A DNA stretch of 59,634 nucleotides from Magnetococcales bacterium (GCA_015232645.1 JADFZF010000002.1:1-59634); one strand, 5' to 3'. Counted from the first letter of the stretch, positions 4,583 to 38,644 are shown. Made by a program: numbers and translations. The notes: a model not told the origin generated them from the sequence alone.

Positions 4583-4598
4583 ATCCGACCGGTGGGTA

Positions 4599-4643
4599 GG
4601 ATGGGTCGGGGAAGAGGGGCGATCCTCTCCCCCTTCCCCGATC
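4599..4643. repeat. REP-like GC-rich palindromic element, copy A; likely bidirectional terminator
   Basis: GGATGGGTCGGGGAAGAGGGGCGATCCTCTCCCCCTTCCCCGATC. The stem CGGGGAAG(A)GGGG pairs with CCCCTTCCCCG. It sits between the convergent stops at 4582 and 4644 and shares the GGATGGGTCxGGGAAG...CCCTTCCCxG core with five other copies. Confidence 0.6.
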
Positions 4644-6952: not shown

Positions 6953-8110
6953 TTATGGATTTGGTGTTGCGGGAAAAGATCGGGCTGGAGGATCGCGAAA
7001 CAAGGTGATCATGAAGGTCGCCCCGCCATCCCGGTTGTTGACCGCCTCCAACAAACCATGATGATGGGTGACGATACGCTGGGCAATGGCCAACCCCAAC
7101 CCCACTCCCTTGCCGGATTCGCCCAGGGACGATGAAGAGAAAGGAAAAAAAATGGAAGGCAATTCTTCCGCGACAATTCCGGGACCGGAATCCATGATAC
7201 GGATTCTGATGCGGTCAGGCAACTCATCGACAGCGACTTGAACCACGGCGCCGTGTGGGCTGAGGGCCGTGGCATTGGCCAACAATTCCGTCAATACGCG
7301 CACGAATCCATCGCGATCCACCTTCACCATACAGGGGGGATCGAAACGTTCCAGCAGTCGCACTTGCCGACACTGGAGTTCATCGAGAACATTGGCCCTG
7401 GCCCGTTGCAACAGTTTGGCCAGATCGTAGGGCTGGAGGTCCAAAGTGCCGTGGTTGGCCTCCAGTAGGGCGAGATCGGTCAGACGATTGATCATTCGAT
7501 CGAGGCGCTCAGCGCTTTCGAGTAAACGCACCAATGGAATCCGCGCCGCCTGATTGTGATCGTCGTCACGCAATTCTCTGGCCAGCGACGCCAGATGGCC
7601 CAAAGACTGCTGCAGCGGCGCTTTCAGATGATGGCCGAGGCGTAGCAACAGACGGTCCTTCAGTTGCGCCGCGCGAACTTCAGCCGCTGCCAGGACTTCG
7701 GCTCGGTGAGCTCTGTCTTCGGCGGCCCGGAGCCGAAACAGACGGCGGATGACCACTTCCAGGAAGTCGGGATCAAATGGTTTGGGGATGAAATCGTTTG
7801 CCCCTGAACGAAAACATTGGACGGCCACCGTCTGGTTGGGGTCCGCGGTCAGAATGACAACCGGAGTCGTATGGCCCTGCTGCCGCAACAGGGTCAGCAT
7901 CGCAAGCCCACTCATACCAGGCATATGGTGGTCGAGAACGATCAAATCGGGATGTTCCCGGGCAACCTCCTCCAGGCCCGATGGCCCATCCGCCGCTTCA
8001 TGGACGATGTAATCCCAGGATTCGAGATACATTCTCAGCATGGAGCGAATTTCGACATGGTCATCCACCACCAGAATGCGATTTTGTTTACCATTTTGGT
8101 GATCATTCAT
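6953..8110 (-). CDS. receiver (REC) - histidine kinase fusion protein
   Basis: ATG 8110 (MNDHQNGKQNRILVVDDHVEIR) overlaps the upstream stop as ATGA. The REC domain shows DD, LIVLDHHMPGMSG and PKPF. The H-box region is LGHHLKAPLQ. The HATPase shows LTELLANA, DSGPGI and GVGLGLAIAQ. Confidence 0.8.
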   Translation of the reverse strand: MNDHQNGKQNRILVVDDHVEIRSMLRMYLESWDYIVHEAADGPSGLEEVAREHPDLIVLDHHMPGMSGLAMLTLLRQQGHTTPVVILTADPNQTVAVQCFRSGANDFIPKPFDPDFLEVVIRRLFRLRAAEDRAHRAEVLAAAEVRAAQLKDRLLLRLGHHLKAPLQQSLGHLASLARELRDDDHNQAARIPLVRLLESAERLDRMINRLTDLALLEANHGTLDLQPYDLAKLLQRARANVLDELQCRQVRLLERFDPPCMVKVDRDGFVRVLTELLANATALSPHGAVVQVAVDELPDRIRIRIMDSGPGIVAEELPSIFFPFSSSSLGESGKGVGLGLAIAQRIVTHHHGLLEAVNNRDGGATFMITLFRDPPARSFPATPNP

Positions 8111-9786
8111 GACTGCTGCCTCCACGCGGGAACGGTAAAATAAAAGCAGGCCCCCTCCCCCACACGGCTGGTCGCATGAATCTGGCCGCCATGAAGTTCC
8201 ACCAAACGCTTGGTCACTGCCAGTCCAAGCCCGGTGCCCCCCGCTTTGCGGGTGGGAGATTGGTCCACCTGATAAAAACATTGAAAAATCGACTCCAGTT
8301 CATGCTCTGGAAGGCCGGTACCGGTATCGGCCACGCACAGTTCGACCATGGTTTCCAGGGGACGGGAGCGGATGACGATTTCTCCCTGACTGGTAAATTT
8401 AATGGCGTTGCCGATCAGGTTGATCAAGATCTGGCGCAGGCGCAGCTCGTCGGCTTCGATCCATTCGGGACCACACAGGTTGCGCATTCCGACCCCTTTC
8501 TCTTCACTTCTGAGGCCCAACGAGTCCACGATCTCCTGGACGGTGGCTGCGACGGCAACGGGTTTCAAAGTCAGATCGATTTTCCCCGCCTCGATTTTGG
8601 CGATGTCGAGCAGATCGTTGATCAGAGTCAGGAGATGGGTACCGCTTTTTTTCATTTCCATCGCCATATGGCTGAATTTTTCCAACATCCGATGGAAATG
8701 ATCACGCGACTCGGATTGGTTGGCCAGGGATTCCATCACTTTTTTTGCGACGGGTAGTTTGAGCGGATCGATCAACAACGGCAGGTAGCCCAAAATGATG
8801 GTCAATGGGGTCCGCAATTCGTGACTCATCATGTTGAGGAATTCCGACTTGGCCCGATTGGCGGTATCCGCCGCCTCCTTGGCGTGTTTGAGAGCCAGTT
8901 CTGTTTGTCGGTGACTGATGCCGAGCGCCCATTCATTGGCAATGCAGGCCAGGGCTTTGAAGGTGTTGTCTGACAGAGTTTGGCGGGAAAACATCCCCAG
9001 CACCCCGATCAGGTGGTCCTCCACCACCAGAGGAAAACCGGCGAATGCCACCATCCCTTCACTTTTGGCCCATTGTTGCTGAGGAATCCTCGGATCGCCA
9101 ATGACCTGATTAGTCAGATGGGGAGTTCGGGACAGGGCAATCTGACCGATTTTGAATGCCCCGATGGGAATACGGGCGTGTGCCCCATCCAGATGGGTGT
9201 AGAGGCCGGAACTGACACGGAGTATCAGCATATTGGTCTCGGGGTCGAACATCCAAATTCTGGCGAAGGCGATTCCCAATCGGGCCACCAGTAGTTGCGT
9301 ACCCGCCTGGAGCAATTCTTCGAGAGTGCTGCTATTGACGAGTATCCCCCCCATTTCGGCGCGCAGCCGTGCCAGAAGGAGATGTTCCTCGATGGTCAGG
9401 TCGGCCAATTTTTTTTTGGTAATATCCACGATGGAGCCGACGAACAGCGGACGATCCCGGATTCTGGCGACGCCCACCGCCAGCCACATGGGGAACATCT
9501 CGCCGTTTTTTCGCAACCCCACCACCTCGCGGCCAATACCGATTATTTTTTTGATCCCGGATTGCTGAAAGGCCTGAAGATAACCGTCATGTTGGGAACG
9601 ATAGGGTTCCGGCATCAACACGTTGACATTTTGCCCGATGATCTCATGCTCGGCATAGCCAAACATCACCGCGGCGGCGGGATTCATCGATTCGACCAAG
9701 CCAAGGTGGTCGATGACGATCATGCCATTGACCGCCACCTGAAAAATGGCCTGTTCTCGTTCGTTGATCCAGGTGGTATCGATCAT
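8107..9786 (-). CDS. PAS-GAF sensor histidine kinase
   Basis: N-terminal PAS (IVIDHLGLVESMNPAAAVMFGYAEHEIIGQNVNVLMPEP...HDGY), then a GAF-like region, HisKA MSHELRTPLTII, and HATPase [25 protein letters not shown]. Confidence 0.85.
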   Translation of the reverse strand: MIDTTWINEREQAIFQVAVNGMIVIDHLGLVESMNPAAAVMFGYAEHEIIGQNVNVLMPEPYRSQHDGYLQAFQQSGIKKIIGIGREVVGLRKNGEMFPMWLAVGVARIRDRPLFVGSIVDITKKKLADLTIEEHLLLARLRAEMGGILVNSSTLEELLQAGTQLLVARLGIAFARIWMFDPETNMLILRVSSGLYTHLDGAHARIPIGAFKIGQIALSRTPHLTNQVIGDPRIPQQQWAKSEGMVAFAGFPLVVEDHLIGVLGMFSRQTLSDNTFKALACIANEWALGISHRQTELALKHAKEAADTANRAKSEFLNMMSHELRTPLTIILGYLPLLIDPLKLPVAKKVMESLANQSESRDHFHRMLEKFSHMAMEMKKSGTHLLTLINDLLDIAKIEAGKIDLTLKPVAVAATVQEIVDSLGLRSEEKGVGMRNLCGPEWIEADELRLRQILINLIGNAIKFTSQGEIVIRSRPLETMVELCVADTGTGLPEHELESIFQCFYQVDQSPTRKAGGTGLGLAVTKRLVELHGGQIHATSRVGEGACFYFTVPAWRQQS

Positions 9787-14813: not shown

Positions 14814-14877
14814 GGGATGGGTCTGGGAAGGGACTGGTCCCTTCCCAGTGGGGTTTGGGGCGAAGCCCCAAGGTTTT
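14814..14877 (+). repeat. REP-like element, copy B (archetype); two hairpins, the second followed by TTTT; likely hrpA terminator
   Basis: GGGATGGGTCTGGGAAGGGACTGGTCCCTTCCCAGTGGGGTTTGGGGCGAAGCCCCAAGGTTTT. Hairpin 1 is a perfect 11-bp stem, 14823-14833 with 14838-14848. Hairpin 2 is TTGGGGC-GAA-GCCCCAA at 14855-14871, followed by a T run. Confidence 0.7.
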
Positions 14878-14952
14878 GATTCTGCCCCGTTATCAGACGA
14901 AATTCTTATTGAAACATGAACGAGCACCAGACTGACCGAAAGGGAAATGCTT

Positions 14953-15351
14953 TCAGGGACCACTGCGCAGTTCGATTTCCTGACCATCGGGACCCGCAAT
15001 AAAGGCCACCCAGGGCTGGTCTGGAACCCCGGTGGGGGGCTGGAACGGCTCTTTGAGGACCGTCACCCCCTGATGGGAGAGTGCCTTTACGGTTTCTTGA
15101 ACATCTTCGACAATGAAAGAAAGATGGTCCAAACCCCCACGTATGGGATGATAAGGCTCAAGGGGACCTTTGGAAGGCTTGCCGTTGTAGAGTTCGATGA
15201 TCAGGGAGCCCTGTTGCAGGTAACATAACATTCGCTCTTTGTATCGCCGAGGGCTCTGGATCACCGTGAATCCGAGCAGGTCGCGAAAAAAATGCAACCC
15301 CGCCTCGAAATCTGTACATTGATAAGCGACGTGGTGAAACTGAATCCGCAT
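14953..15351 (-). CDS. VOC (glyoxalase / bleomycin-resistance / dioxygenase) superfamily protein
   Basis: 132 aa. MRIQFHHVAYQCTDFEAGLHFFRDLLGFTV matches the VOC beta-alpha-beta-beta-beta N-module, and GLDHLSFIVEDVQETVKALSHQGV is the second module. It has its own AAGGAG RBS 7 nt upstream of the ATG. Confidence 0.75.
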   Translation of the reverse strand: MRIQFHHVAYQCTDFEAGLHFFRDLLGFTVIQSPRRYKERMLCYLQQGSLIIELYNGKPSKGPLEPYHPIRGGLDHLSFIVEDVQETVKALSHQGVTVLKEPFQPPTGVPDQPWVAFIAGPDGQEIELRSGP

Positions 15352-15392
15352 TCTGAACTCCTTTCCGAAAAACGGTGTGAGGCCGGTTCAGG

Positions 15393-18386
15393 TCAGGGAC
15401 TCACGGGTGACGGGGTCTGGATTTTGTCTGTCCCGGGTTTGAGAGATGTGTTTTTTTTTGAAGGAGGCTTCATGGCCTCAATATAGCCCTGGATGGCTTT
15501 GCGCATTTCTGTCGGCCACTTCAAGTCTTGCCTATCGGGCCAACGTTTTTGAATGATCTGGTCGAGAAAGGTGAAATCCTCCTGCACACATTGTTTGTCC
15601 TGGGGGCCGATGTTGTTGCACTGTCCGACACCCGTATTGACCGCCAACAGGATTGTCGGTTGGGTGGTTTGATTCTGGCTAAACTCCGCAGTCTTGAGGA
15701 TAAAACTACAAAGCTGGTAGTTGAGGTATTCCTGATCACTCAGCAGCCCACGCTGCTTGAACAGGGTTTCAGCCTGCTTGGTATGTCGAACGGCCTCATC
15801 CAGATCTCCGAAGGCCAGATCAAGCAAGGCGATACGGATCAGGGAGGCGTAGAAGGATCCATCAAGTCGGATGGAACTGCTGAGCAACTGATAGGCCTCC
15901 CGAGCGATGGGGGGAGGCATTTCTTCCCGCCAGTTATTGTATTCCTCTCGAAAAAAACGCACCAACTTGGAATAACCATGGCTGAAATGCAACATGTATT
16001 GTATTCTGTTCGGATCCCGGCTGCTGAAATATTCTGCCAGTGAGTAAGCGGTTTGGGATCTTTCTCCAGCTTCTCCCGGATCGTTTTTCAGCAAGGCCCC
16101 CAGGCTTCGGTTGGATTCCACGCGAATTTCTCTGGCCAGACGCATTTGATTGTTCCACTGATTTTCATTTTGACCGGCGCGATTAAGAAACTCATGGGAA
16201 AATTTGGCTGCCTTACTATGAGCCATTTCGGCACTCGGCTTATCCTGTAATTGGCGGTAGACCGACCCCCACAGATAGTTGATCTTAAAAGAAGTTGATT
16301 GGGCATCCATGTTCATGGCCTCCAGAAAGCACTCCACCTCCTCGGTTCGGGAATTCTCGAAGGCCAGGGTGCCGAGGCAATAGACAGAATCCAGGAAGAA
16401 CTCGTTTTTCCGCTCGTCAACGAACAGATCTTCGTTGGCTGCGTAACGGTCCAACAGCTCCAGAGTCATGCCGCGTACAAGCAAGGTGCGGGCTGTGGAG
16501 TAAAGACTTTCATCCACACACAGATAGGCCAGCAGCAGTAATAATACATTGAACTGAATCTTTTCCTCAAGACCCATTTTGGGACTGGCCAAATCGAATG
16601 CCCAGCGCAGCAGTAGCTCCGCCAGTTCGATGGACCGTTTCAACTGGTCTGCCGGATGCAATCCCTCCTCATAAAGCCGACAAAAAGGCGAATCCAGTTG
16701 AGTGACCTTCCGCACCAAAGTCCACAGTGGTTGTTTCTTGTGCTGGATGGAGATTTGGTCATTCATCAACCACGATAATTCATTGATCACATTTCGCCCT
16801 TCAAGGGTGGTGTTGAAAAAATGTGGTATGGGTTCCCCGGTCAACTTGCGACGAAAAAATGGAAAGTGGCCGTAAAAACCGGCCACGCCGTAATGCCTGC
16901 GGATGAGGTTGGAGATTCCCACCATCGGGCTCTTCTGGCTGACGTTGGCATAGTTCAACCTGGGTTCCATCCGTTCGTTCCAGCCGGAACAGACACGCAC
17001 CCGGCCATCAATGCCAATGGAGATGTCTTTTTCTTGAACGCACAGAAAGCAGCGTTTGATCAGGTCCGAATCCAGATCGCAGTTCAGACGCACCAGTTCC
17101 ACTTTCAGACTCTTCGGACCCCATGGGAGGAACTCTGTTACCCGATTCTCCGGTTTCCAGTCCCTCACCAAAGATCCAAAAGCTTTAGTGATGATCTCCC
17201 TGTACGCACTGTGCCCGTCCAGAGAGTCTTGGTTGAATTTTGGTCCCCCTCCAATCGTCCCCGTGCCCGCATCAACCGACTTAGTGGTGCCCATGGTTTC
17301 TGGATTCTTATCGTTAACATAATGAAATTTTTTGACTGTTTTTTGAATCAGGGCGATCCCCTGAACCTGGTCGGGAATATACTTCCCAAAACGTTCACGG
17401 ATAGCTTCGATGATCTCCATGGGTTCATGTTGGGAACTTCCCACCACGTAATTAAAACGGACTCTAACTGCCTTAGTACGAAGCAGAACGGCGACGTTAT
17501 TAAATACCGATGCCAATTTTTTCTCTAAGGGAGCGTCCAAAGGAACGCTCTGCTTTCCGGTATCTGGATGCAAGCTTATTCGAATATCTTTCAGACCGGC
17601 CTGAACTAATTGGTCTGCCTTGTCTTGGTCCAGCAAGTCGCCATTGGTGATTAAATAGCTCTTTCCCTTGGCCTCTCGGATCAAATCCGGCAACTCATTA
17701 TTTTTTAGGGGTTCGCCGCCGGTCCAGGTAAATTCAATACGGGGCATGGGCTGATTATTTCCGCCTCTGGCTTCAACGCTGGCCAAATTCTGAACCATTT
17801 GGCGCAGCCGCTCAATATCCTTGGTCTGGTCGGTTGGAGGGAATTCGTCGTGGTGGCAATACGAGCAGTTGCGATTGCAGCTGGAGGAGGTTTGAATGCG
17901 GATACGACGTTGGGTTTCGGAACCATCATGTTGGGGGGGACCGTGATCAAGGGAGACTGAACTGAAAAGGCGATCGCTGGCAAGCTGATTGCGTAAATCA
18001 GTAAGCTTGGCTTCAAGTGCAGGGAGGTCTGTCCACTGAATGCCGTGCAATGATGTCACCCCTAAGGGGAGATCGTCTATCCGATGGTCCCCTATGAAAA
18101 TTGGCACAACCTGGAGGCCATTATAGATCAAGCGGGTGACAATCTGGTTGTATTCATATCGGGCGTAGCGGGTATTGTTGATGTATGAATGGGAGATCAC
18201 CAGTATAGCAGCCCGGCAGGTGCCGATAGCTTGCTCAATCCATGTGTTTATCGATCTGCCCAGCTCCAAGTCGCGGTTGTCGTCATAGTACGCTAAATCC
18301 ACTTTCTTAAGGGCAGGCAGCAAATTTCTTTTCACCCATTCTTGGTCCCGAGAATCAAAGCTGATGAAAATCTTCCCAGTAGGCAT
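15393..18386 (-). CDS. TIR domain - radical SAM (CX3CX2C plus twitch/SPASM-like Cys cluster) - helical-repeat fusion protein (997 aa)
   Basis: ATG 18386 is preceded by GGAGGGAG; the ORF-track start 18398 is a TTG inside that SD. TIR: KIFISFDSRDQEWVKRNLLPALKK..LAYYDDNRDLELGRSINTWIEQAIGTCRAAILVISHSYINNTRYARYEYNQIV. Radical SAM: CNRNCSYC (nt 17856-17879), TGGEPL, LITNGDLL, IRISLH. Auxiliary cysteines: C-x9-CxxC then ISIGIDGRVRVC. The last ~470 aa are helix-rich with no motif I recognise. Confidence 0.85.
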   Translation of the reverse strand: MPTGKIFISFDSRDQEWVKRNLLPALKKVDLAYYDDNRDLELGRSINTWIEQAIGTCRAAILVISHSYINNTRYARYEYNQIVTRLIYNGLQVVPIFIGDHRIDDLPLGVTSLHGIQWTDLPALEAKLTDLRNQLASDRLFSSVSLDHGPPQHDGSETQRRIRIQTSSSCNRNCSYCHHDEFPPTDQTKDIERLRQMVQNLASVEARGGNNQPMPRIEFTWTGGEPLKNNELPDLIREAKGKSYLITNGDLLDQDKADQLVQAGLKDIRISLHPDTGKQSVPLDAPLEKKLASVFNNVAVLLRTKAVRVRFNYVVGSSQHEPMEIIEAIRERFGKYIPDQVQGIALIQKTVKKFHYVNDKNPETMGTTKSVDAGTGTIGGGPKFNQDSLDGHSAYREIITKAFGSLVRDWKPENRVTEFLPWGPKSLKVELVRLNCDLDSDLIKRCFLCVQEKDISIGIDGRVRVCSGWNERMEPRLNYANVSQKSPMVGISNLIRRHYGVAGFYGHFPFFRRKLTGEPIPHFFNTTLEGRNVINELSWLMNDQISIQHKKQPLWTLVRKVTQLDSPFCRLYEEGLHPADQLKRSIELAELLLRWAFDLASPKMGLEEKIQFNVLLLLLAYLCVDESLYSTARTLLVRGMTLELLDRYAANEDLFVDERKNEFFLDSVYCLGTLAFENSRTEEVECFLEAMNMDAQSTSFKINYLWGSVYRQLQDKPSAEMAHSKAAKFSHEFLNRAGQNENQWNNQMRLAREIRVESNRSLGALLKNDPGEAGERSQTAYSLAEYFSSRDPNRIQYMLHFSHGYSKLVRFFREEYNNWREEMPPPIAREAYQLLSSSIRLDGSFYASLIRIALLDLAFGDLDEAVRHTKQAETLFKQRGLLSDQEYLNYQLCSFILKTAEFSQNQTTQPTILLAVNTGVGQCNNIGPQDKQCVQEDFTFLDQIIQKRWPDRQDLKWPTEMRKAIQGYIEAMKPPSKKNTSLKPGTDKIQTPSPVSP

Positions 18387-18402
18387 AACTCCCTCCAAAT
18401 TA

Positions 18403-18430
18403 AATATAGAATAGAAATTTTTAGATACAA
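18403..18430 (-). promoter_or_regulatory. candidate sigma70-type promoter for the TIR-radical SAM gene
   Basis: The minus strand reads TTGTAT (18430-18425), a 16-nt spacer, then TATATT (18408-18403), just upstream of the SD/ATG at 18386. This is a sequence-pattern call only, in a very AT-rich spacer where such matches arise easily. Confidence 0.25.
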
Positions 18431-18900
18431 TCCTGCCTTCAACTTAGCACCGGATCCTGATCATGATAACCGTAAATAGACTAGGACCGATAGCATCTTG
18501 ATGTCAAGTACATATAACTCAAAGTAGTTTATTTAATTAATATTATGTTGTGATCTATATTTTAGTTAAATATCATGTAAAAAAAATCTAATCTGTTTAT
18601 TGATTGCTTGAAAATGTGGGGGGCGAGTTTCGAGACTGGATCTGTTTCGCCATGGTTGCCCGCTACCCATGGTGCCACCCGAGGGCTCCAGACAGCGGTT
18701 TGCAGCCGATATGACAGAAAATTTCTGCTGTCGCTTCGACATCTGAAAGGATGAGATTCGTCGACAGAAATACAACCATTAGACAAAAATGGCCCGCCAT
18801 GGCCAGGGGGGCATTGCGATTATTGCTGGGAAGGGTCAGTCGGCTTGTATGAAAGTGGCGCGGGAGTAGATTTCAGGATGGAGGTATTAATGCAAATTTA

Positions 18901-18935
18901 AATGATGATAACCTTCCAGTCATGTTATCATCATT
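18901..18935 (-). terminator. hairpin overlapping the stop of the 932-aa Hsp70 gene
   Basis: A perfect 12-bp inverted repeat, AATGATGATAAC (18901-18912) with GTTATCATCATT (18924-18935), and an 11-nt loop. On the minus strand it is followed by TAAATTTGCATT. The stem is AT-rich and so weak. Confidence 0.35.
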
Positions 18936-21729
18936 CAATAAACAGCCCCGGCGGCAGGGATTCACCGTAAAGGCTGACCTGGTCCGCCCGGACCACCGGG
19001 AAGAAGTCCAAAATTCTGGCCACCCGCAATGGCGCCACTCCTGCCTTTTCCAGTTTGGAACTGATTTTTTTTCGTGTAACGACGGCAAGATCAAGGCTGC
19101 GATTATCCACAACCCGGGCCGCCTGTAGAAACAGGGTTTGCATCGCCGCCATTCCAGACCAATCGAGCTTCTGAAACGCTGCAAACGCCTGCTCGACCTT
19201 TTCGGGGGCGACGACCGCCTCGGGTCCGGAATACAGAGGGGTTCGATTGAGCAACAACCCCAGGGCATCGAGGTAAGGATCGGCATATAGTTTGTCCCGC
19301 AACAACTCCTGAGCCCGCTCAAGGTAGAGATCGATCAATTCCGCCTTGATCTCATGCCCAAGACGTTCCAACGCCCCCGAGAGGCGAATCAATTCCGGTG
19401 ACGGATTTTTGCTGGTACGCAAAGTCCGCAACTCCGAAGAAAGTAGACGCTCCTGACGTTGCCGATCCAAACCACCTGCTACCCGACGCCACAAGATATA
19501 TTCCTGCAGGCGGATACGCTTGCCGGGAAAAGCCACCCCCCCCTCCATCAACCGCCACAGGTTGTCGATGCGGACTTCGTCCATGACGGCACCAAATCCA
19601 GGACGAAGGAAATAACCCGCCAGGATCAACCAGGTTTCTTCATGATCGACAGAGTTGGTACGATGAATGAAAATTCCCGCTAAAACCTCCCACAGCTCCC
19701 GGATGACCACCCAATTCCACTCCCCCTTGGCCTTTCCCAGGATTTCCTCCAGACTTTTATTGAGGCGGGTCGGAGTCAGTTTGTCCCGTTTTTCGATGGC
19801 CTTGGCGAACAGGGTTTGAATCCGGGACCTGGCCAGAGCCATGGCTTCCGGGGCCACATTGGGCTCGGCCTTGACCATGGTCTCGGTCCCACGCTTGATC
19901 CCGGCAGGGGAGCCGGTTTCATGGGGGCGAAGATTGAACTCCAACGGCCAGGTTTGACTAAGTTCCGGGGCTTGACTGTGGATCAGCACCTGCAGCAAAC
20001 CCAATTCGTTCTGTTCGGCGCTCAAGGAAACGGGGAGGGATGTTTCCAGAGGAACGACCACCCCCTCGTCGGGTTGGACGATGGTTTCCAAAGCCAACAA
20101 AGGATGGAATTCCCGCTCGTTCCAATCCACCACGGCGCCGGCCTCGACCTGGTTGGCCCTGGTGGAATAGTGGCTTTGAAACCGTACCGGACGATTGATT
20201 TGCATGGTCAACGCCAAGTGGTCCATATTGAAACGTTCGCCACTCCTGGCCCCCCTGGGAAGGATGCATACCAGGGAGGGGGGACCGGAAGATTGACCAC
20301 TCGCCTCGTCCTTGCGATGCACCTCGAGAAAAATGGCCCTGGGGGCTCCCGCCTCGATTCGGGACTCCTTGAAATGGAGAATGCGGCCATAACGTGCCGC
20401 TCCCAGGGCGACCGCCAGGTCGGGCTCCCGGTTTTCCAGGGCCAGTGGACGGTATTCCTGCTGCCAATGGGCGATCTGGCGCAGTAATCGTTCACGTACC
20501 AAATCAGGAATCAACGAGCCGCCGTTGAACAGGACGGCGTCCACCATGGGCAGGCCGTTGAGGAATGCGGCCAGATGTCTGGTCACGGCACTATCGGCGG
20601 CATAGGGCAGACCCCATTCCTTGAATGCCCCGAGGGTGGTTTCCGGAACGTCGGTGCGTTCACAGACAGGGAAAAAACCATCGAAGAGGATTTGATGCAC
20701 TTCTGCCCGGGACAGGCGCGCCGACATGGTTCCGGTGAGCAGGGAAGAACCGCGCCCAGTGATGGACAGGGTGAAATATTCGTTGACGGCACCATCGTCG
20801 GCGAGGATTTTTTCCTTCAAATCACGACATCGCGCCACCAAGTGGTCCCACATCTGACTGGAAAGATGACCCGAATCGCCCACCAGACGCTGTTGCATCG
20901 CATGGGCGATGGCGAGATCGATATTATCCCCACCCAACAAGATGTGATCGCTCACCGCCACGCGCCGAATCTCCGGAGGGAGCGAACCCGATTGCCGTTG
21001 CAGGGAAAAAAGGGAAAAATCACTGGTGCCTCCGCCGATATCGACGACCAGGACGTGACAATCGTGCCGCCGCTGCGGGGGGAGCAGGTTCCACAGCCCT
21101 TCCTGAGAGGGATGACGTTCCAACCAACGATAAAAGGCGGCCTGGGGTTCCTCGATGAGGCGCACCCCTTTGGGAAAACCGGCATCGCGAGCCGCCATCA
21201 ACGTCAACCTCTGGGCCACCGCATCGAAGGAGGCAGGTACGGTAATGGTGATACTCTGGTTCTCAAAAGTGAAATCTTCCCCGGAAGCGGCAAAACGATC
21301 GTTCCACACCCCGCTGAAATAATTGAGGATCAAGGCCAAAGCCCGCAGTGGTGACATTTTTTCCTCGGGCCTGAGTTCCTCGGAACCAAAAGGGAGGAAG
21401 GGGGCGGTCCGATCGGAGGCATGATGACACAGCCACGATTTGGCGGAATGAACCACACGGCCGGGGGACTGGGCCGCCTGGGCGCGTGCCTGATGGCCGA
21501 TCATCCAGGGATTTTTCTCCTGATTTTCGCCCAGATAATGTTTCAACAACGCCGGTTCGGGAAGGTACAAAAACGATGGGAGTGTGGTGGATTCGCCGAC
21601 ATTGGAACGCGACAACCATTGCACCACCGGGAAGACTTCACTGTGATCCCCCCCTTGGAGGGATTGGTAGGCCATGACCGAGGAGGTGGTTCCCAGGTCG
21701 ATGCCGATGCTGAATCGTGCCGTGGACAT
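18931..21729 (-). CDS. Hsp70-family ATPase with long C-terminal extension (932 aa)
   Basis: Actin/Hsp70 NBD motifs are present: FSIGIDLGTTSSVMAY (phosphate 1), VLVVDIGGGTSDFSLF (phosphate 2) and ILLGGDNIDLAIA. The ~330 C-terminal residues are unlike the DnaK lid. Confidence 0.85.
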   Translation of the reverse strand: MSTARFSIGIDLGTTSSVMAYQSLQGGDHSEVFPVVQWLSRSNVGESTTLPSFLYLPEPALLKHYLGENQEKNPWMIGHQARAQAAQSPGRVVHSAKSWLCHHASDRTAPFLPFGSEELRPEEKMSPLRALALILNYFSGVWNDRFAASGEDFTFENQSITITVPASFDAVAQRLTLMAARDAGFPKGVRLIEEPQAAFYRWLERHPSQEGLWNLLPPQRRHDCHVLVVDIGGGTSDFSLFSLQRQSGSLPPEIRRVAVSDHILLGGDNIDLAIAHAMQQRLVGDSGHLSSQMWDHLVARCRDLKEKILADDGAVNEYFTLSITGRGSSLLTGTMSARLSRAEVHQILFDGFFPVCERTDVPETTLGAFKEWGLPYAADSAVTRHLAAFLNGLPMVDAVLFNGGSLIPDLVRERLLRQIAHWQQEYRPLALENREPDLAVALGAARYGRILHFKESRIEAGAPRAIFLEVHRKDEASGQSSGPPSLVCILPRGARSGERFNMDHLALTMQINRPVRFQSHYSTRANQVEAGAVVDWNEREFHPLLALETIVQPDEGVVVPLETSLPVSLSAEQNELGLLQVLIHSQAPELSQTWPLEFNLRPHETGSPAGIKRGTETMVKAEPNVAPEAMALARSRIQTLFAKAIEKRDKLTPTRLNKSLEEILGKAKGEWNWVVIRELWEVLAGIFIHRTNSVDHEETWLILAGYFLRPGFGAVMDEVRIDNLWRLMEGGVAFPGKRIRLQEYILWRRVAGGLDRQRQERLLSSELRTLRTSKNPSPELIRLSGALERLGHEIKAELIDLYLERAQELLRDKLYADPYLDALGLLLNRTPLYSGPEAVVAPEKVEQAFAAFQKLDWSGMAAMQTLFLQAARVVDNRSLDLAVVTRKKISSKLEKAGVAPLRVARILDFFPVVRADQVSLYGESLPPGLFIE

Positions 21730-21804: not shown

Positions 21805-23649
21805 TCATTCAGTGCGCACCTGCAACTCGATTTTCCATTGATTATCGGAGTTGAGATGCCGCATCCACAACTCCAGGATCCCCAGTTCGTTGACGATGGA
21901 TTGGATGCGAACCGGAACCACCTGCCCCGGTGGCAGATCGTCCAGTTGGGGAATGGTCACCTCCAAGGTATGATTTTCCTCCAACTCCCGCAAGGCATTG
22001 GGAAGGATGAATCCGGCGACATCGCCACCGCGAATCGAACTGGAAAAAAAACGGAAGTGGACGCTTTTCCCGGTCACGAGTCCGAACTCTTTTTCCATGA
22101 TGAGGTGCTGACTCCCCTCCTCCATGCCCTGGGGGACGACGCACAAGGCCTTGACCGGAGGCTTGAAGCCTGGGACGGCGGGCATGGAGGATTCCAGGCC
22201 GATATAATAGGACCGTGCGGTTCCCGCCTTGATGCGCATTCCCTTTCCGGTGAGCCGGTATTGACCATAAACCGCCGCCCCCTTGGCGACCGCCAGATCG
22301 GGTTGGAATCCTTCCAACAGTCGTACCGGCTGGCCGCTCCAGGAGGTGAGAAGGTCGAGAAGTCTTTGCCGCAGGGGGATGGCTTTGAAGACGCCGCCAT
22401 TGAAGAGGACTGCCGTCGGTGCCAGGAAAGAGTCCTGTAACGCTTCCCGGGGAAGCATGGCCGCCAGATGCGGACTGGAACGGACATTGGCAAGGCTGCG
22501 GCTGAGAAAGCGAGCCAATTGTTTGCTGATGACGGGATCCGACGCATACGGCAGCCCGAATTCGTGCAGTCCGGAGTGGTTGTCCTCCAGCGGCAGATCG
22601 GTGACCAGGACCTTGGGAAAGAAACCTTCGATAATGATATCGTTGAGGAGTTGCCGTTCCAGTTTAACGCTCAAGGTTTTGGCAAACAGGCTGGCACCCC
22701 GGGAGGGAATGGCCAGAGGAATTTCATCGAGTTCGGGCTCCTCGAACAGTTTGACCTTGGCCTTGCCAGCGGCGTGGAGCAGTGCCAGAAACTGCCAATC
22801 ATCAAGGGCTTTCCCCTGGCTTTCCAATCGTGAGGCCAGGGCGTAGGCCAAGGCCAGATCCATATTGTCGCCACCGAGAAGCAGATGTTCGCCGACGCTG
22901 ATGCGTTCCAACTGCAATTGGCCTTGAAGTTCGGTCACGGCGATCATGCTGAAGTCGGCCGTACCACCGCCGATATCGGCGACCAGAATGCAATCGCCGG
23001 GGCGGACCTGTGAGCGCCACCCCTTTCCGGCCTGATCCATCCAGGCATAGAACGCCGCCTGCGGTTCCTCCAACAGGGTGACCTGGCCCAATCCCGCTTT
23101 TTCGGCCGCCGCGGCAGTGAGATTTCTGGCGACCTCATCGAAGGAGGCGGGAACCGTCAGGACGACCTGGGCCTGGGCGGGATCGAAGGTGTTCCCCTGC
23201 AGGGATTGGGCATGCTGAAACCCCGACACCAGCGTTTCGAGGATCAGTCGCGAGCAATCAAACGGGGAGACCTGGATTTCGGGCAGTTCGGAGCGCCATG
23301 GCAGAATATTTTTTTTGGGATCGATGTGAGCGTTGGAAAGCCACGATTTGGCCGAAACCACCAACCGGTCAGGGACCTGGGCGCCATGATCGCGGGCAAA
23401 ATGGCCAATGATGGGCGAGGTTGAAGTGGTTGGCTGCTGCCAGGGCAACCGGACCGCCTCCGGAGAAAATTCATCCTCATGGGGCAGGTAAAGAACGGAA
23501 GGCAAGGTTTCCCTTTCCCCCACCTTGTTGGGACCGAGAATCTGGGAAACCGGGGCGATGATAGGGGAGTTTTCCGTTTCCGGGCCGATGCAGGCGATCA
23601 CGCTGTTGCTGGTACCCAGGTCGATGCCGAGAATGAATCGATGACTCAT
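21805..23649 (-). CDS. Hsp70-family ATPase (614 aa)
   Basis: ATG 23649 gives MSHRFILGIDLGTSNSVIACIG. Also present: ILVADIGGGTADFSMI, LLLGGDNMDLALA and VLFNGGVFK. The 106-codon ORF-track N-terminal extension overlaps the upstream gene and is rejected. Confidence 0.85.
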   Translation of the reverse strand: MSHRFILGIDLGTSNSVIACIGPETENSPIIAPVSQILGPNKVGERETLPSVLYLPHEDEFSPEAVRLPWQQPTTSTSPIIGHFARDHGAQVPDRLVVSAKSWLSNAHIDPKKNILPWRSELPEIQVSPFDCSRLILETLVSGFQHAQSLQGNTFDPAQAQVVLTVPASFDEVARNLTAAAAEKAGLGQVTLLEEPQAAFYAWMDQAGKGWRSQVRPGDCILVADIGGGTADFSMIAVTELQGQLQLERISVGEHLLLGGDNMDLALAYALASRLESQGKALDDWQFLALLHAAGKAKVKLFEEPELDEIPLAIPSRGASLFAKTLSVKLERQLLNDIIIEGFFPKVLVTDLPLEDNHSGLHEFGLPYASDPVISKQLARFLSRSLANVRSSPHLAAMLPREALQDSFLAPTAVLFNGGVFKAIPLRQRLLDLLTSWSGQPVRLLEGFQPDLAVAKGAAVYGQYRLTGKGMRIKAGTARSYYIGLESSMPAVPGFKPPVKALCVVPQGMEEGSQHLIMEKEFGLVTGKSVHFRFFSSSIRGGDVAGFILPNALRELEENHTLEVTIPQLDDLPPGQVVPVRIQSIVNELGILELWMRHLNSDNQWKIELQVRTE

Positions 23650-23671
23650 GAAAGGGTCCTGGCTAGAGGAT

Positions 23672-24319
23672 TTATTTGAGTTCCACCTGGGCCGGGGCGA
23701 TGGCCGGCAGACGCCCCCCCTGATGGTTGAGGGTGCGTGGCAGTTTAACGCGGTTGGTCTTCCAGCCTTTATGGACCAGGGTTCCGGTGAATGGGGGTTG
23801 ACCGATGATTTTTCCCACCAATTGATGGCTGTCGGGGGCAAATCCAGCGGGTACCACCACGTTGGATCCTTCAGGTTCGTCACGGACCGGGACGATTTCA
23901 AAGTGTTCCAGGAGGGCGCTTCGGCAGCCTTCATGGATGACCCGTGCGGCGGCGCCGACCTGGGCATCCTCGAACGGAGCGATTTCCTCCATCAGGAAGT
24001 CGATGAGCCGTCCCTTTTCCTGAAGAACTCCCAGGAAAGAGACGATATGGGCCTCACAACCGGTGTCACCGGTGGCCGAAGCCTGCGGTCGGATGGCCGC
24101 GGCCCGAGGTTCCTTTCTGACTTTGGTTTTGGTACCGGTCTTGATGACAAAAATCGCCGGCAGCAGCAAAATGGCCACCGCCAGGATCGCCCACATGAGT
24201 TTTTCATGATTTTCCCGGATCATGTCAACCATGGGTCCGGGGACCAATGCCTCGGGAGCAATGGCCGCTGCAACCAGAATGATGATGATGAAAACCGCAA
24301 ACAACGAAACAGATCGCAT
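23672..24319 (-). CDS. DUF2760-like protein with N-terminal transmembrane segments
   Basis: There are two hydrophobic N-terminal helices. GRLIDFLMEEIAPFEDAQVGAAARVIHEGCRSALLEHFEIVPV...GTLVHKGWK...PAIAPAQVEL then matches my recollection of the DUF2760 consensus (GRLvDFLqEdI..ysDaQIGAAaR.VH.gC...L). It is the first gene of the operon with the two Hsp70 genes. Confidence 0.6.
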   Translation of the reverse strand: MRSVSLFAVFIIIILVAAAIAPEALVPGPMVDMIRENHEKLMWAILAVAILLLPAIFVIKTGTKTKVRKEPRAAAIRPQASATGDTGCEAHIVSFLGVLQEKGRLIDFLMEEIAPFEDAQVGAAARVIHEGCRSALLEHFEIVPVRDEPEGSNVVVPAGFAPDSHQLVGKIIGQPPFTGTLVHKGWKTNRVKLPRTLNHQGGRLPAIAPAQVELK

Positions 24320-33865: not shown

Positions 33866-36800
33866 TTGAAACTCATGAGTGACCCAGGGATCGAACCCAA
33901 ACGAATACTCCTCATCGACGATCAATATATCACCTATAAATATTTGGATCGTATGATCGATGTCGATGACCTGAAACTTTTCTACTGCCAGGACCCCAGG
34001 CAGGCCTGCCTGGATGCGGAAAAGATACGACCCATGGTCATTCTGCTGGATCTGGTCATGCCGGAGATGGACGGAATGAGCCTGTTGCGGCAATTACGCA
34101 AACATCGGGTGACCAGTAACATTCCCGTCATTCTCCTTACCTCCATCGACGAACCCCAGATCAAGGCCGAAGGGTTTGCGGCTGGCGCCAGCAATTATCT
34201 AGTCAAATTTCCCGATCGGGTGGAGATGATCGCCCGCCTGCGTTATCATGCCCATACCTTTGTGCGCATGGCACGAAAATCAAAGGAATGCGAAGACTGT
34301 ATCGATCTGCTGCAGTCCGCCATCAAAGGGATCGTGATGCTGGATGTCACGTCCAAGGTGATCGTCGATGCCAACGAAACCTTTTGCCAGCTTATGGGGT
34401 ACGACCGCTCCGCCCTTGTGGGCCACCACATGGGGGAATGCGTCCGGATGGAAGATCAGGATTCGGTACAACGGGCGTTGGAGCGGATCCCGCAACCCGA
34501 TCATCGTGTTTACGACGTTTCCCTCCGCCATATTTCGGGAGGTGAGGTTCGGGTGCGCTTTTGTGTGACTGTCGATACCCGTTCCCAGATCGACCGCAAG
34601 GCGATCACGCTGACCTTTGTCCTCGATCGTTCGGAAACCCTGGAAGGTTCCGACTACAGTACCCAATTCCGCCTGCATGCCGATATGATTCCCGGGATGG
34701 TCTGGATGTGCAATCGGGAAATGAAACGGACCTTTTTCAACGATGGTTGGCTGGCCTTTACCGGCAAGATCATGGCTCGCGAACTGGATGACGGCTGGTT
34801 GGAGGGGGTTCATCCCGATGATGCCCCAGGGCTGCGGGTCCATTTTGCCGATGTTTTTGCCTGTCGCCAACGTTTTGCCATGGAATATCGCCTGCGCACC
34901 AAGGATGGGTCCTATCGCTGGGTGTACGACACCGGTTTCCCGTTTTTTGCCCAGGGAGATAACTTTCAAGGTTATACAGGAAGTTGCGTTGATATCAACG
35001 AACGCAAGGGATTTGAGGAACGCTTGCGCAATTTCAACATGGAACTGGAAGCGCGCATCCAGGATCGGACCGTGGAGTTGCAACGGGAGGTGGAAGAACG
35101 AAAAAATGCGCAGATGAAGGAGCGTCGCGCCCGGGAGATACAGAATACCGTCAGCAACATGTTGCGCATTGCCTTGCTCGCCATTCCACTGAAGAAAAAA
35201 TTGGAAACCGCCTTGAGCATGATCGTCAACACCCTCACCGGTGACATGCTGCCCAAGGGGATGATCCTGCTCAAAGATCGGGACCAGGAAACCCTGTCGG
35301 TGGTGGCGCATCGAGGATTCAGCGAACTGTCGCCCCTGCCCTGCTCACGGGTCAAATTCGGCGAGTGCCTGTGCGGAATTGCCGCCCGCCGGCACGAAAA
35401 TATTTTTTCACACCATATCGACGAATTACACTCGATTCGGACCCCGGACATGGAACCCCATGGACACTATTGCCTGCCTTTGCTTTCGGAAGACCGGCTC
35501 CTGGGTGTTTTATCGATCTACGTCAAACACCTGTCCGAATACAATCCGGACAACGAAAAAAATTTCCAGGCTTATGCCCATACCTTGGCCACCATCCTGG
35601 AGCAAAGCCGGACCGAAGAGCTGCAGAAGGAAAAGATGGCCGCCGAGGCGGCTAGCCGCGCCAAAAGCCAATTTTTGGCGACCATGAGCCACGAGATTCG
35701 TACCCCACTGAATGGTATCCTGGGGATGACCAGTCTGCTGTTGACCTCCGAAGTGACCGAAGACCAACGCCGACGTCTCATGCAGATCCACCAATCGGGC
35801 AACAATCTGCTCAACATCCTCAACGATATTCTCGATATCTCCAAAATCGAGGCGGGAATGATGATCGTAGAGTCACGTCCCTTCGTCCTGAACGATGTGA
35901 TCCGTGTCCTCTCCAACTTGGTCGAACGAAAGATTGAAGAAAAACGGTTGGTTTACAGCGTGTCCATTCACCCCGACGTCCCGCAGTTCGTCAAAGGGGA
36001 TTCGGTACGTCTGGGGCAGATATTGAACAATCTGCTGGCCAACGCGGTCAAATTCACCCATGAGGGACGGATTACCCTGAGTATCACCATGGACGAGATC
36101 GAGTTTCATCAAGGGTTGATGCGATTTACCGTTGAGGATACCGGAATCGGCATCTCCCGACAGGTCCTGTCGGGGTTGTTTCAACCCTTCACCCAGGCGG
36201 ACGACTCGACAACGCGCAAATACGGTGGTACCGGGTTGGGGCTGGCCATCAGCCGACGGTTGGTGGAGATGATGGGAGGCACCATCGATGTGGAGTCGGA
36301 ACCGGGCCGCGGCAGCCGGTTCACTTTCACCGTGCGTCTGGGAATCACCCACGAAACATCCACGGGAACAGTACCCGACTCGTTATCTCCCAAGCAGCTC
36401 GTCGCCCAATCCCGACGGGTTCTCAAGGGAGGACGGGTGTTGCTGGTGGAAGATGATCCGATCAATATCGACGTGGCCCGGGATGTATTGCAACAGGTCG
36501 GATTGCAGGTGGAGGTGGCGCACAATGGCATCGAGGCCCTTGCCGCCGTGGTCGGAGATGGCCTGGCGCACAGGAAACACTACGATCTGGTGCTCATGGA
36601 CCTGCTCATGCCCCGCATGGACGGATTCGACGCCACCCGCCTCATCCGCAAACACCTGAGCAAGGAACAACTGCCTATCATCGCCATGACCGCCAGCGCC
36701 ATGAGCGGCGAACGCGAACGATGCCTGAGCGCGGGGATGAACGATCATCTTCCCAAACCGGTGGAGCTGGAGATTCTCTATACGGTTTTGTCGCGCTGGA

Positions 36801-38644
36801 TCCAGATGCCTGATAGGAAGATCGATACCTCGTCCCATCCCCTCCCCCATGCCGCCGAGCCGGGGGAAAGGAAATCGAACCCGGACGACTTCGACTTCAT
36901 CAGAGGCCTCCAAACCATCGACGTGTCCGGCGCGATACGAAAATTCGGCCATAACCCCAAGTTTTACCGCAAATTGCTCCTTGACTTTCGCAAAGGCTAC
37001 GCCGACACCGGCAAGTCCATGGAAGAGGCGATGAATCGCGGTGCCTTGGCGGATGCCAAACGGTTGGCCCACACCATGAAGGGGGTGTCGGGAAACATCC
37101 TGGCCCAAGGACTGGCCGAAGCGGCCCACCAGTTGGAAATCATCATCGGCACCGATCCCGACGTGGAAATGTGCCGCGAGCCATTGCGCCATTTTAACGA
37201 GGCCTTGGCCAAATTGCTTCGGGATCTCGACCCCATCGCAGCGGGTCGGGATCCCGATCCGGTGCCCCCCCCCCCGTCTGTCGTCCAAGGATGCCCCCGA
37301 GGTTCTGGGGCGGTTGGCGGACTGTCTGCGCAGCAACAACGCCCGGGCTTTGGAGATCGTCACGTCGGCCGCGGCCTGGCTGAGAGAGGAGGGATGCGAG
37401 CCGGAATACCAAACCATGTTGGAGTCACTGGAAAAATTCGATTTCAAGGGAGCCATGATGCACTTGAAGATCATATCCGACAAACTGGGGCTCGACCTTT
37501 CGGGAGCCGCCTTATGACCATCGAACCCGTTCGGCGCCAGGTACTGGTGGTGGATGACGATGCCCAGAGCATCCGTCTGTTGCTGGAAGTTCTCCATCCC
37601 CTGGATCTGGAAATAATGGTGGCTACCGACGGTCATACCGCTCTGGAAATCACGGCCCAACACATCCCCGACCTGGTGCTTCTGGATATCATGATGCCCG
37701 ATTTGAGCGGCTACGATGTCTGCCAGGCCATTAAAACCAATGTCGAAACCCGAGACATCCCCGTTATTTTCATCTCCGCCATGTCGGCCACGGAAGATGA
37801 GAGCACCGGTCTTAAACTGGGAGCAGTGGATTACATCACCAAGCCGTTCCAGTTTGAAATCGTCCGTTCGCGGGTGCAAACCCACCTTGAACTGCGTGCC
37901 GCCTACCAGGAATTGGCCCGGATCAATCAAAATCTCATGGAAGAACGGCGGCTGATCGAGCGGGTCCTGGCCAACACCCGGGAGGCGGAGTTGTTGGATC
38001 ATCGCTATCTTTCCACCCACGTCGCCCCCAAGCAGGAGGCGATGGGCGACATACTGTTGGCCGCTTTTCGTCCCGATGGCGCCCAACACGTCATGCTAGG
38101 CGATTTTACCGGACACGGTTTGACGGCGGCCATAGGGGGGCCACTGGTTGCCGATCTTTTTTATGCCCGCACGGCCCGCAATGAACCGATGGAAATCCTT
38201 GTTGATGAAATCAACGCCAAGCTGTTCCGTATCCTCCCCGAAGGGATGTTCATGGCGGCCATTTTTGTGGAAATCAGCCCTGATCGGCGCAAGTGCTCCC
38301 TGTGGAACTGCGGCATGCGCGAGGCCTTTCTGTTCCGCAGCGGGGTTTGCCAGGAACGGCTCTCCTCGACTCATTTCCCACGCGGGCTCATGCGGATCTC
38401 TGAACGCCCGGGAGTCGATCTGGAACTGCGGACCGACGACAAACTGTACCTGTACAGCGATGGATTCGTCGAGGAGATGGATGTTGAGAAACATATGTTT
38501 GGGACCGAACGGCTGCTGCAAATCTTGCAAAAAATTGCTGCTGGCGAAAAAACGTTCGAATTCCTTGCCGAGACTCTGGCCAACTTCCGTCCCAAAGGAA
38601 CCCCTCAAAGCGACGACATGTTCATGGTGGAGGTGAATTGCTAG
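33866..38644 (+). CDS. uninterrupted 1592-aa ORF: a REC-PAS-PAS-GAF-HisKA-HATPase-REC-Hpt hybrid kinase read through a poly-C tract into a REC-PP2C(SpoIIE) phosphatase
   Basis: TTG 33866 or ATG 33875. REC1 has ILLIDDQ and [11 protein letters not shown]. HisKA is [12 protein letters not shown]. HATPase has [28 protein letters not shown]2 has [10 protein letters not shown] and [13 protein letters not shown]. Hpt is [11 protein letters not shown] ~79-aa Gly/Arg-rich segment of non-protein-like composition follows the C run. REC3 then starts at [16 protein letters not shown] (ATG 37514) with [11 protein letters not shown]. The PP2C-like C-terminus has [23 protein letters not shown]. It is probably two genes; see the findings. 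Confidence 0.8.
37265..37275 (+). repeat. 11-nt poly(C) homopolymer inside the coding region
   Basis: GTG CCCCCCCCCCC GTCTG was counted directly in the sequence. It encodes PPPP in the current frame. Confidence 0.95.

Follow-up and report, generated by a model that had tools for sequence, protein, structure and literature searches.

A two-gene module in the DNA of a Magnetococcales bacterium (GCA_015232645.1, JADFZF010000002.1:1–59634; this whole stretch of 59,634 nt is termed the window) encodes a 997 amino acid (aa) protein in which a TIR domain is joined to a radical S-adenosylmethionine (SAM) enzyme and a long TPR-like helical solenoid, and next to it a small metalloenzyme of the VOC/glyoxalase family. 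The module appears to be an immune or conflict system with the TIR domain as its effector; a probability of about 0.6 is given to this reading, which is drawn from sequence and predicted structure. The module is very rare, is patchily distributed over several distant lineages and moves horizontally. The new part is the central engine (radical-SAM/twitch/TPR plus VOC), which is placed in a modular layout of the abortive infection type that is already known. The architecture, the conserved residues, the rarity, the linkage or fusion of the two genes, the effector swapping and the folds described below are computed results.

Domain structure of the large protein

The reading frame is free of stop codons on translation (its end coordinate in Table 1 counts the stop codon). 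At its N-terminal end, the TIR domain proposed in the initial annotation gives matches above the cut-offs of both Pfam TIR_2 (E = 1.5e-13, 51.7 bits versus a cut-off of 28) and Pfam TIR (E = 8.6e-11, 42.4 bits versus 21.3), and Foldseek aligns it with AbTir (7uxu, TM 0.80), SARM1 and TLRs. The sequence FISFDSRD is found at residues 7–14, and Glu78 lies within RYARYEYNQI. This residue had been selected by eye as the catalytic glutamate; in the family profile it aligns with the Glu of WTNYEL in the NADase TIR structures of AbTir and BtTir (7uxr, 7uwg, 8g83), and it is kept in all TIR-bearing family members. The position of the glutamate suggests that the domain belongs to the NADase-competent subgroup. 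The linker between the TIR domain and the radical-SAM barrel (residues 138–158) is predicted by AlphaFold to be disordered, with a local confidence score (pLDDT) below 50.

The assignment of a radical-SAM core also holds. Pfam Radical_SAM (PF04055) matches residues 165–279 (E = 4.7e-10, 40.3 bits versus a cut-off of 29.5), and the motifs cited in its favor are all in place: C170-x3-C174-x2-C177, GGEPL (223–227), TNG (247–249) and IRISLH (268–273). Between the barrel and the following domain, the window protein alone carries an insertion of 44 residues that is rich in Gly and Thr.

An auxiliary cysteine cluster resembling those of twitch/SPASM domains had been suggested as well. A CX9-15GX4C hairpin is the signature of such auxiliary-cluster domains. 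The spacing in the window protein is C436-x9-C446-x2-C449-x16-C466, which contains C449-x11-G461-x4-C466. The twitch hairpin and four invariant cysteines are thus present, but the SPASM part of the suggestion found no support, as the Pfam SPASM model gave no match and Fer4_12 stayed below its cut-off (E = 0.014, 16 bits versus 22). The auxiliary domain is best classed as twitch-type and not SPASM, because just four cysteines are conserved, where the SPASM motif has seven, and because a SPASM match is lacking.

The C-terminal region had been described as helix-rich and repeat-like, and the structural model agrees with this. When the last ~450 aa were modelled alone, the result was all-helical with a pLDDT of 86. 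Foldseek matches of the solenoid are to generic TPR proteins only (LGN, Tom70, Rap, IFIT and APC subunits, E = 2e-3 or worse); the match probability reaches 1.0 for LGN, Tom70, Rap and proteins built of consensus TPRs, at TM scores of 0.26–0.47. Pfam detects no TPR in the window protein and gives sub-threshold TPR_8 matches in homologues. A full-length AlphaFold model built from 17 family sequences has a mean pLDDT of 77.4 and a predicted TM score (pTM) of 0.75. In this model the barrel, the twitch domain and the solenoid are predicted to form one rigid body.

Conservation of the core, exchange of the N-terminal domain and the VOC partner

A word-indexed search of 5.8 billion proteins yielded just three homologues (31%–44% identity), and a profile of a 17-sequence alignment returned only the same four proteins from that database, in a search limited by its candidate pre-filter. 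Scanned exhaustively with HMMER, a set of 1.84 billion cluster representatives gave 21 proteins with E < 1e-30, about 16 of them full length. When 185,579 species were scanned, with one genome per species, five genomes were positive (Falkowbacteria, Dojkabacteria, Deltaproteobacteria, Ignavibacteria and Chloroherpetonaceae); JGI metagenomes contributed five loci. A fold search of BFVD found just generic phage radical-SAM proteins and TPR/Sel1 proteins of giant viruses. The NCBI label of the homologues is merely "TIR domain-containing protein". Eight window proteins were queried against the protein collection and six were matched, each as a 90%-identity singleton; the host lineage is therefore without a close relative in that collection.

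None of the catalytic residues varies among 17 homologues with 28%–46% identity to the window protein, an invariance far beyond chance. Radical-SAM columns that are invariant or at least 90% kept are RRIRIQ, C170/C174/C177, H178, D180, GGEP (223–226), T247/N248, R269 and R310/N312. The auxiliary C436, C446, C449 and C466 are invariant (17–20 sequences). Conservation extends through the solenoid, where many positions are likewise invariant or at least 90% kept in 17–20 sequences (VDE 624–626, Y704/G707, R760, S802/Y805, FYA 845–847, LLxDQEYLN 881–889 and D930/C933); the strongly kept motifs are VDExLFS, LFSDGY, FYASLIR, RGLLTDQEYLN and CxNxGxxDxxCV. The number of conserved columns per residue is 0.124 in the solenoid versus 0.13 in the enzyme and is highest, at 0.145, in the twitch domain plus connector. 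The role of sensor that had been proposed for the helical domain is uncertain, since this domain matches the catalytic core in conservation and is not hypervariable.

Some members show variations. P0004, P0009 and P0012 have CX5CX2C or CX8CX2C in place of CX3CX2C, with the remaining catalytic motifs intact. In the deltaproteobacterial P0004 (locus L002, 10001–13093), the last ~90 residues are tandemly duplicated (residues ~905–1030), which repeats the sequence C-x-x-x-G-x-x-D-x-x-C-V at the end of the solenoid.

The best fold match of the core in the PDB (Foldseek) is MoaA (1tv7, E = 1.5e-6, 337 alignment columns versus the 327-residue chain 1tv7_A), and this match takes in the C-terminal cluster domain. 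Viperin is next (5vsl/5vsm, E = 4–6e-4, TM 0.56–0.58). Judged by sequence, the closest radical-SAM enzymes of known structure are the "Fe-S radical SAM" 8wm2, BlsE, GDGT-MAS, MoaA and BtrN. The top NCBIfam match is MoaA TIGR02666 (E = 4e-13, 49.1 bits versus a cut-off of 284), and the prokaryotic viperin model (viperin_w_prok) gives E = 6e-9 (35.4 bits versus 180). There are weak NCBIfam matches of the core to peptide maturases as well, and the HxsC4 model scores 33.7 bits versus a cut-off of 500. The PADLOC pVip model matches the window protein at 2.8e-11 over model positions 11–154 of 262 only, and it matches the core of five of the seven members scanned (1e-6 to 4e-12), both HD-CE members being negative. 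Because the scores are far under both family cut-offs, the radical-SAM domain is judged to be related to the MoaA and viperin families and a member of neither.

The comparison with MoaA can be extended to single residues. Both proteins have the Cx2C...GxxxxC auxiliary-cluster motif, and R163 stands seven residues before the first cluster cysteine, like R17 of MoaA. They differ in that the window protein has a fourth invariant cysteine, C436, and the auxiliary cluster may therefore be fully ligated. They also differ at the guanine-binding arginine pair after Cx2C, R266/R268 of Staphylococcus aureus MoaA (numbered as in the title of PDB entry 2fb2): these positions are acidic in the window protein (E452 and D454). 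The sequence VQEKD follows C449, with E452 invariant in a four-sequence alignment and D454 in 17 sequences. No molybdopterin genes are found near the cassette.

The N-terminal domain varies on this constant radical-SAM/TPR core. Most members have TIR_2, while L009 has a different, AbTir-like TIR and P0015 has DUF4062 (TIR-like). CHAT is present in P0006 and L025; in P0006 it gives a PADLOC "chat" match of 5e-19 and displays the His/Cys dyad motifs HFSGHG and NAC. An HD-CE domain with the HD motif is found in P0010, P0011 and P0022, and P0008 has two or three hydrophobic helices. Proteins with different N-terminal domains, i.e. L009 (TIR), L013 (CHAT) and L016 (membrane helices), are still 51%–54% identical over the aligned full-length proteins, which argues that the swaps are recent. 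An effector-less core was not found: all 19 full-length members checked have a recognisable N-terminal domain (the TIR of P0012 is truncated). The standard effectors that CBASS, Thoeris, type III CRISPR and Avs systems interchange are of just these kinds: TIR, caspase-like protease, HD hydrolase and membrane helices. In the CHAT member at L025 (470–3757, plus strand), a sub-threshold match to Effector-associated domain 7 (19 bits versus 32) lies between CHAT and the radical-SAM domain and may connect this member with adaptor domains known from other conflict systems.

This exchange bears on a second suggestion of the initial annotation, that the radical-SAM enzyme might modify what the TIR domain makes from NAD, or the TIR domain what the radical-SAM enzyme makes. 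As close relatives have CHAT, HD or transmembrane domains where the TIR stands, the core chemistry should not depend on TIR products, and the suggestion is disfavored.

The second gene of the module, read from the same strand, begins 41 nt past the large gene's stop codon and has its own AAGGAG ribosome-binding site. Its product matches Pfam Glyoxalase (E = 1.8e-12, 48.1 bits versus a cut-off of 20.6). No specific equivalog fits, the NCBIfam SMU1112c/YaeR model giving 57 bits versus a cut-off of 140. The gene was contained in the segment earlier proposed for cloning, where it was not recognised as a conserved partner. A cognate VOC gene adjoins (12 loci) or is fused to (two loci) the large gene in 14 of the 18 assessable loci. 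It lies 3′ of the large gene, overlapping it or within ~45 nt, in the window and in L001, L002, L004, L009, L011, L013, L016, L019/L020, L021, L022 and L025, whereas P0010 and P0011 carry the VOC as a C-terminal fusion. The metal tetrad H7/E53/H76/E127 is invariant in 13 cognate VOC proteins. Pairwise identities of the VOC proteins correlate with those of the core (r = 0.69; none of 5000 Mantel permutations reaches this r), and the two genes have therefore been inherited as a unit. The small VOC metalloenzyme thus appears to be a dedicated partner of the radical-SAM core.

Other arrangements occur beside the large gene. At L012, in a Chloroherpetonaceae metagenome-assembled genome, the next gene (12836–13540, plus strand) encodes an AlkD-like DNA alkylation repair protein (Pfam, 7e-53). 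It may hint at a DNA-damaging product of the core, or it may be a coincidence. A VOC gene farther downstream at this locus was rejected as a cognate partner, as it does not share the family motifs. At L018 (P0017) the place of the VOC gene is taken by a second, small MoaA/viperin-like radical-SAM gene (4030–4809, plus strand), which has a 4-nt overlap with the large gene; in the fragments P0033 and P0027 of this divergent clade, the second radical-SAM protein is joined directly to the solenoid's end. At L024 and L026 the large gene is followed by 326 nt and 182 nt, respectively, of non-coding sequence up to the contig end. The P0005 locus (L021, 4220–4921, plus strand) has a guanylate-kinase-like P-loop gene after the VOC gene (E = 1.5e-7, partial domain). 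Many viperins are linked to nucleotide kinase genes.

Expression signals and genomic location

The coordinates of the features in the window are listed in Table 1.

Table 1. Features of the two-gene module and of its surroundings in the window.
Feature	Position	Strand	Extent	Basis or remark
TIR/radical-SAM (twitch)/TPR-like protein gene	15393..18386	-	997 aa	Open reading frame translation, Pfam, AlphaFold model
TIR domain	18021..18371	-	residues 6–122	Predicted catalytic Glu78; Pfam TIR_2, profile alignment, Foldseek
Radical-SAM core	17337..17909	-	residues 160–350	Pfam PF04055, invariant columns, Foldseek
Disordered insertion	17202..17333	-	residues 352–395	pLDDT < 50; gap in all homologues
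Auxiliary Fe-S domain, twitch-type	16977..17141	-	residues 416–470	Invariant Cys, beta-hairpin in model
Helical connector	16746..16976	-	residues 471–547	PLxGISxAIRRxYGxAGFYxHFP; joins twitch domain to solenoid
TPR-like alpha-solenoid	15462..16745	-	residues 548–975	~18 paired helices; AlphaFold, Foldseek
VOC/glyoxalase-family metalloenzyme gene	14953..15351	-	132 aa	Pfam, family linkage
Intergenic region upstream of large gene	18387..18930	-	544 nt	AT-rich close to gene
GC-rich hairpin	14849..14872	.		Between VOC gene and convergent hrpA gene
Hsp70-like ATPase gene	18931..21729	-		Upstream of module
Hsp70-like ATPase gene	21805..23967	-		Upstream of module; paralog of preceding
Open reading frame	43048..46539	-	1163 aa	No Pfam match at E 1e-5
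Hybrid histidine kinase/response regulator genes	33866..38644, 40185..43001, 46658..49654	+		Large proteins
Hybrid histidine kinase/response regulator gene	6953..9786	-		Large protein

The sequence GGAGGGAGTT stands 5′ of the ATG at 18386, with a GGAGG ribosome-binding site 6–7 nt before the ATG. An alternative in-frame TTG start at 18398, farther upstream, is without this ribosome-binding site. The promoter of the module is presumably its own and within the intergenic region; a single weak sigma-70-like site is present there (18569–18542), and in the promoter and terminator scans the numbers of sites in the region, this one included, are not above the shuffled expectation. A 15-nt inverted repeat (18898–18938) behind the upstream Hsp70-like gene looks like the terminator of that gene. 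At the other end, the GC-rich hairpin is a probable bidirectional terminator and would mark the end of the cassette. An Rfam search of the cassette region found nothing, including no SAM riboswitch.

The GC content of the cassette is 0.48–0.52 versus ~0.57 in the rest of the window. The cassette lies between a convergent hrpA gene and a pair of Hsp70-like/DUF3731 genes, and the flanking genes differ in every locus of the family, being housekeeping genes for most. The window contains no tRNA gene, and there are no flanking direct repeats beyond chance. Positions 14850–18930 carry a self-contained, horizontally acquired two-gene module, which most likely serves as an anti-phage or conflict system of a so far undescribed type.

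One of the two Hsp70-like genes encodes a C-terminal DUF3731 ("DnaK-related") domain and gives a weak, partial PADLOC match to PDC-M61B (5e-9). The pair was rejected as a component of the system and is probably unrelated to it, having a GC content like that of the host and being missing from all other family loci. At other loci, an EcoO109I-type restriction endonuclease gene (L004, 4088–4832, plus strand) is found 600 nt downstream of the Falkowbacteria module, and a DDE transposase fragment (L026, 4840–5409, plus strand) is located upstream of the P0009 locus. Elsewhere in the window, genes for large hybrid histidine kinases/response regulators are dense; one of these proteins, of 1592 aa, has PAS/GAF, kinase, three receiver, Hpt and SpoIIE phosphatase domains. 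The longest-start sequence of the 1163-aa open reading frame is not in the protein collection.

Relation to known systems and proposed function

No model in Pfam, NCBIfam or PADLOC-DB v2 describes the whole protein, and none in Pfam or NCBIfam describes the solenoid; the PADLOC matches (PDC-S66, ThsB, SAVED-TIR and pVip) are partial and at the level of single domains. A full-text literature search gave no description of an architecture with TIR, radical-SAM and VOC/glyoxalase components. The initial statement that no described family has such an architecture is therefore in agreement with the databases and literature searched. The catalogues have missed the module because of its extreme rarity and its presence in bacteria of the candidate phyla radiation. 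Two literature mentions of radical-SAM proteins were set aside: the one in Kaur et al. 2020 refers to a separate FtsH ternary system, and one in a Dnd paper is irrelevant.

The closest layout is that of the Avs/STAND proteins, which likewise have an exchangeable N-terminal effector of the TIR, protease, nuclease or membrane type, a conserved center and a C-terminal TPR-like solenoid in one chain and a scattered, horizontally moving distribution. The center of the window protein is a radical-SAM enzyme with a VOC partner and not an NTPase; no P-loop or STAND model of Pfam, NCBIfam or PADLOC matches the protein at E up to 0.1. The prokaryotic viperins (pVips) share a radical-SAM domain of the MoaA/viperin structural neighbourhood and an apparent defence context. 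A pVip, in contrast, stands alone as a protein of ~300 aa, and none is known to have an auxiliary cluster, a TPR solenoid, a fused effector or a VOC partner. Thoeris and related TIR systems share the TIR_2-type domain with its catalytic Glu (PADLOC PDC-S66, 7.7e-12, and ThsB, 5e-7, residues 6–97). These matches are confined to the TIR domain of the window protein, and neither the cassette nor the related loci have a ThsA-type gene (SIR2, Macro or TM with SLOG).

In DSR2 and SpbK (PMC11850899, PMC12847820), an N-terminal NAD+-consuming effector is reported to be fused or linked to a sensor of phage proteins. They resemble the window protein in combining such an effector with a large helical/solenoid region, and abortive infection is the expected outcome. 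They are not known to carry an enzyme between the effector and the sensor, or to have a partner enzyme, and the similarity to the window protein is confined to the TIR. A radical-SAM enzyme is needed for defence in Ophion (OpnABC), with PHP and PRTase partners (bioRxiv 10.1101/2025.09.30.679545), and reportedly in HXS, with a His-Xaa-Ser repeat peptide as partner (PMC13128918). Neither of these is known to have a fused effector, a solenoid or a VOC protein.

The defence or signalling role put forward in the initial annotation is strengthened by the patchy spread of the family, its differing flanks, its low GC content and the swapping of its N-terminal domain among immune effectors. That the TIR would be the effector is suggested by its kept catalytic Glu, its flexible tether and its replacement by other toxic domains. 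A number of points weigh against an immune module. Most loci lie among housekeeping genes, outside recognisable defence islands, and defence neighbours are only scattered. The immune role is read from architecture and distribution, and the conserved radical-SAM and VOC catalytic residues fit a purely metabolic role of the core equally well. An adjoining VOC gene is missing in four loci (L012, L018, L024 and L026). Phage and plasmid collections contain no family members, the only plasmid matches being two Brachyspira radical-SAM genes that cover 14% of the query. The family sample is small (~20 sequences), with metagenome bins for most. The solenoid, being conserved like the enzyme, may serve as a scaffold or contribute to the active site instead of sensing invaders; this, together with the lack of an NTPase, tempers the analogy with Avs.

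How the parts of such an immune module might work together can be outlined as follows. The nearest relatives of the core (MoaA, viperin, BlsE and BtrN) act on nucleotides or sugars, which points to a nucleotide-like small molecule as the probable substrate. The barrel of the core, assisted by the solenoid, would bind SAM together with a substrate that resembles a nucleotide or sugar nucleotide, and the core would carry out radical chemistry on that substrate. VOC enzymes act via metal-stabilised enolate/enediolate intermediates, and such chemistry fits the keto/enol product of a radical oxidation or dehydration of ribose. The VOC enzyme could then process or remove the product of the core through a metal-stabilised, enolate-type reaction, as a processing or reset step. 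The state of occupancy or assembly of the core during infection may license the tethered effector, probably via oligomerisation, and a licensed TIR would deplete NAD+ and halt the growth of the infected cell. This licensing model is favored because the conserved part of immune proteins with fused effectors is normally a sensor or switch; as a specific mechanism it is tentative, with the odds against it, whereas the immune module and the licensing mechanism weighed jointly are given an even chance. It is also conceivable, though rather unlikely, that the core and the VOC protein are an enzyme-based substitute for the STAND NTPase, in which an irreversible radical reaction on an infection-specific nucleotide-like molecule licenses any tethered death effector (TIR, CHAT, HD or membrane helices), and the VOC enzyme serves for proof-reading or resetting.

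Other explanations divide the work differently. The radical-SAM and VOC enzymes might, as in viperin, turn a cellular nucleoside triphosphate into an analogue that poisons polymerases, and this would be the chief antiviral action, leaving the N-terminal domain as a parallel arm outside that control. Viperin and MoaA are indeed the closest folds, the pVip and prokaryotic viperin matches noted above point in this direction, and so do the guanylate-kinase-like gene at L021 and the second small viperin/MoaA-like radical-SAM partner in the P0017 clade. The scores, at 35 versus 180 bits for viperin and 49 versus 284 for MoaA, are however far under the cut-offs; a core sufficient in itself would be expected to occur without an effector, which it does in none of the 19 full-length members; and pVips are not known to have an auxiliary cluster, a solenoid of 430 aa or a VOC partner. 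This explanation is considered plausible, though unlikely. Coupled chemistry, in which NAD+ is first cleaved or cyclised by the TIR and the resulting product is then modified by the radical-SAM enzyme to give a signal or toxin (or the two act in the opposite order), is far less probable. It would account for the presence of both enzymes in one chain, each with its catalytic residues or motifs kept, and ADP-ribose derivatives are nucleotides, on which MoaA- and viperin-type enzymes act. Against this, a core of 51%–54% identity has CHAT, HD-CE or transmembrane N-termini in place of the TIR, the VOC partner tracks the core and not the TIR, and the TIR is on a disordered linker with no predicted interface.

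The substrate could also be a macromolecule. The solenoid would then capture a phage protein or peptide, or an RNA 5′ end as IFIT does, and its modification by the radical-SAM enzyme would inactivate the invader or trigger the effector. A clamp would fit with barrel and solenoid being predicted to pack rigidly (pTM 0.75), Rap- and IFIT-type TPR solenoids are among the structural matches, and twitch/SPASM enzymes often modify peptides, as do the maturases to which the core has weak NCBIfam matches. This is nevertheless improbable: the matches to TPR proteins are generic (E = 2e-3 or worse, TM 0.2–0.45), small molecules are the substrates of the best radical-SAM relatives, it is not obvious what a VOC partner would do on a macromolecule, and no precursor-peptide gene is conserved in the family loci. 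A small chance is likewise left for a function outside immunity, i.e. a rare secondary-metabolite, cofactor or detoxification pathway in which the N-terminal domain serves for regulation or localisation. Natural-product pathways commonly employ radical-SAM and VOC enzymes, VOC proteins also act as self-resistance factors, and the AlkD-like gene beside the VOC-less L012 and the housekeeping flanks would suit such a pathway. Biosynthetic enzymes, in contrast, do not show an interchange at one position between a TIR bearing the catalytic Glu, a CHAT bearing the His/Cys dyad, an HD domain and membrane helices; no further biosynthetic, transport or precursor genes are conserved, there being one or two genes everywhere; and the taxonomic spread is extremely patchy.

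If an immune module is the correct reading, its significance lies in the nature of the core. Radical-SAM enzymes in immunity have so far been chiefly the viperins, which make chain terminators, and lately the peptide-maturing HXS and Ophion-type enzymes. Here a radical-SAM enzyme occupies the place usual for the NTPase switch of modular single-chain immune proteins, together with classical exchangeable effectors. The module is compact (~4 kb, two genes) and its catalytic residues are clear for mutation, so that it is directly testable. Should it be a true defence system, it would represent a new enzymatic logic for bacterial immunity and could lead to a modified nucleotide or metabolite, new to science, that acts against viruses or in signalling.

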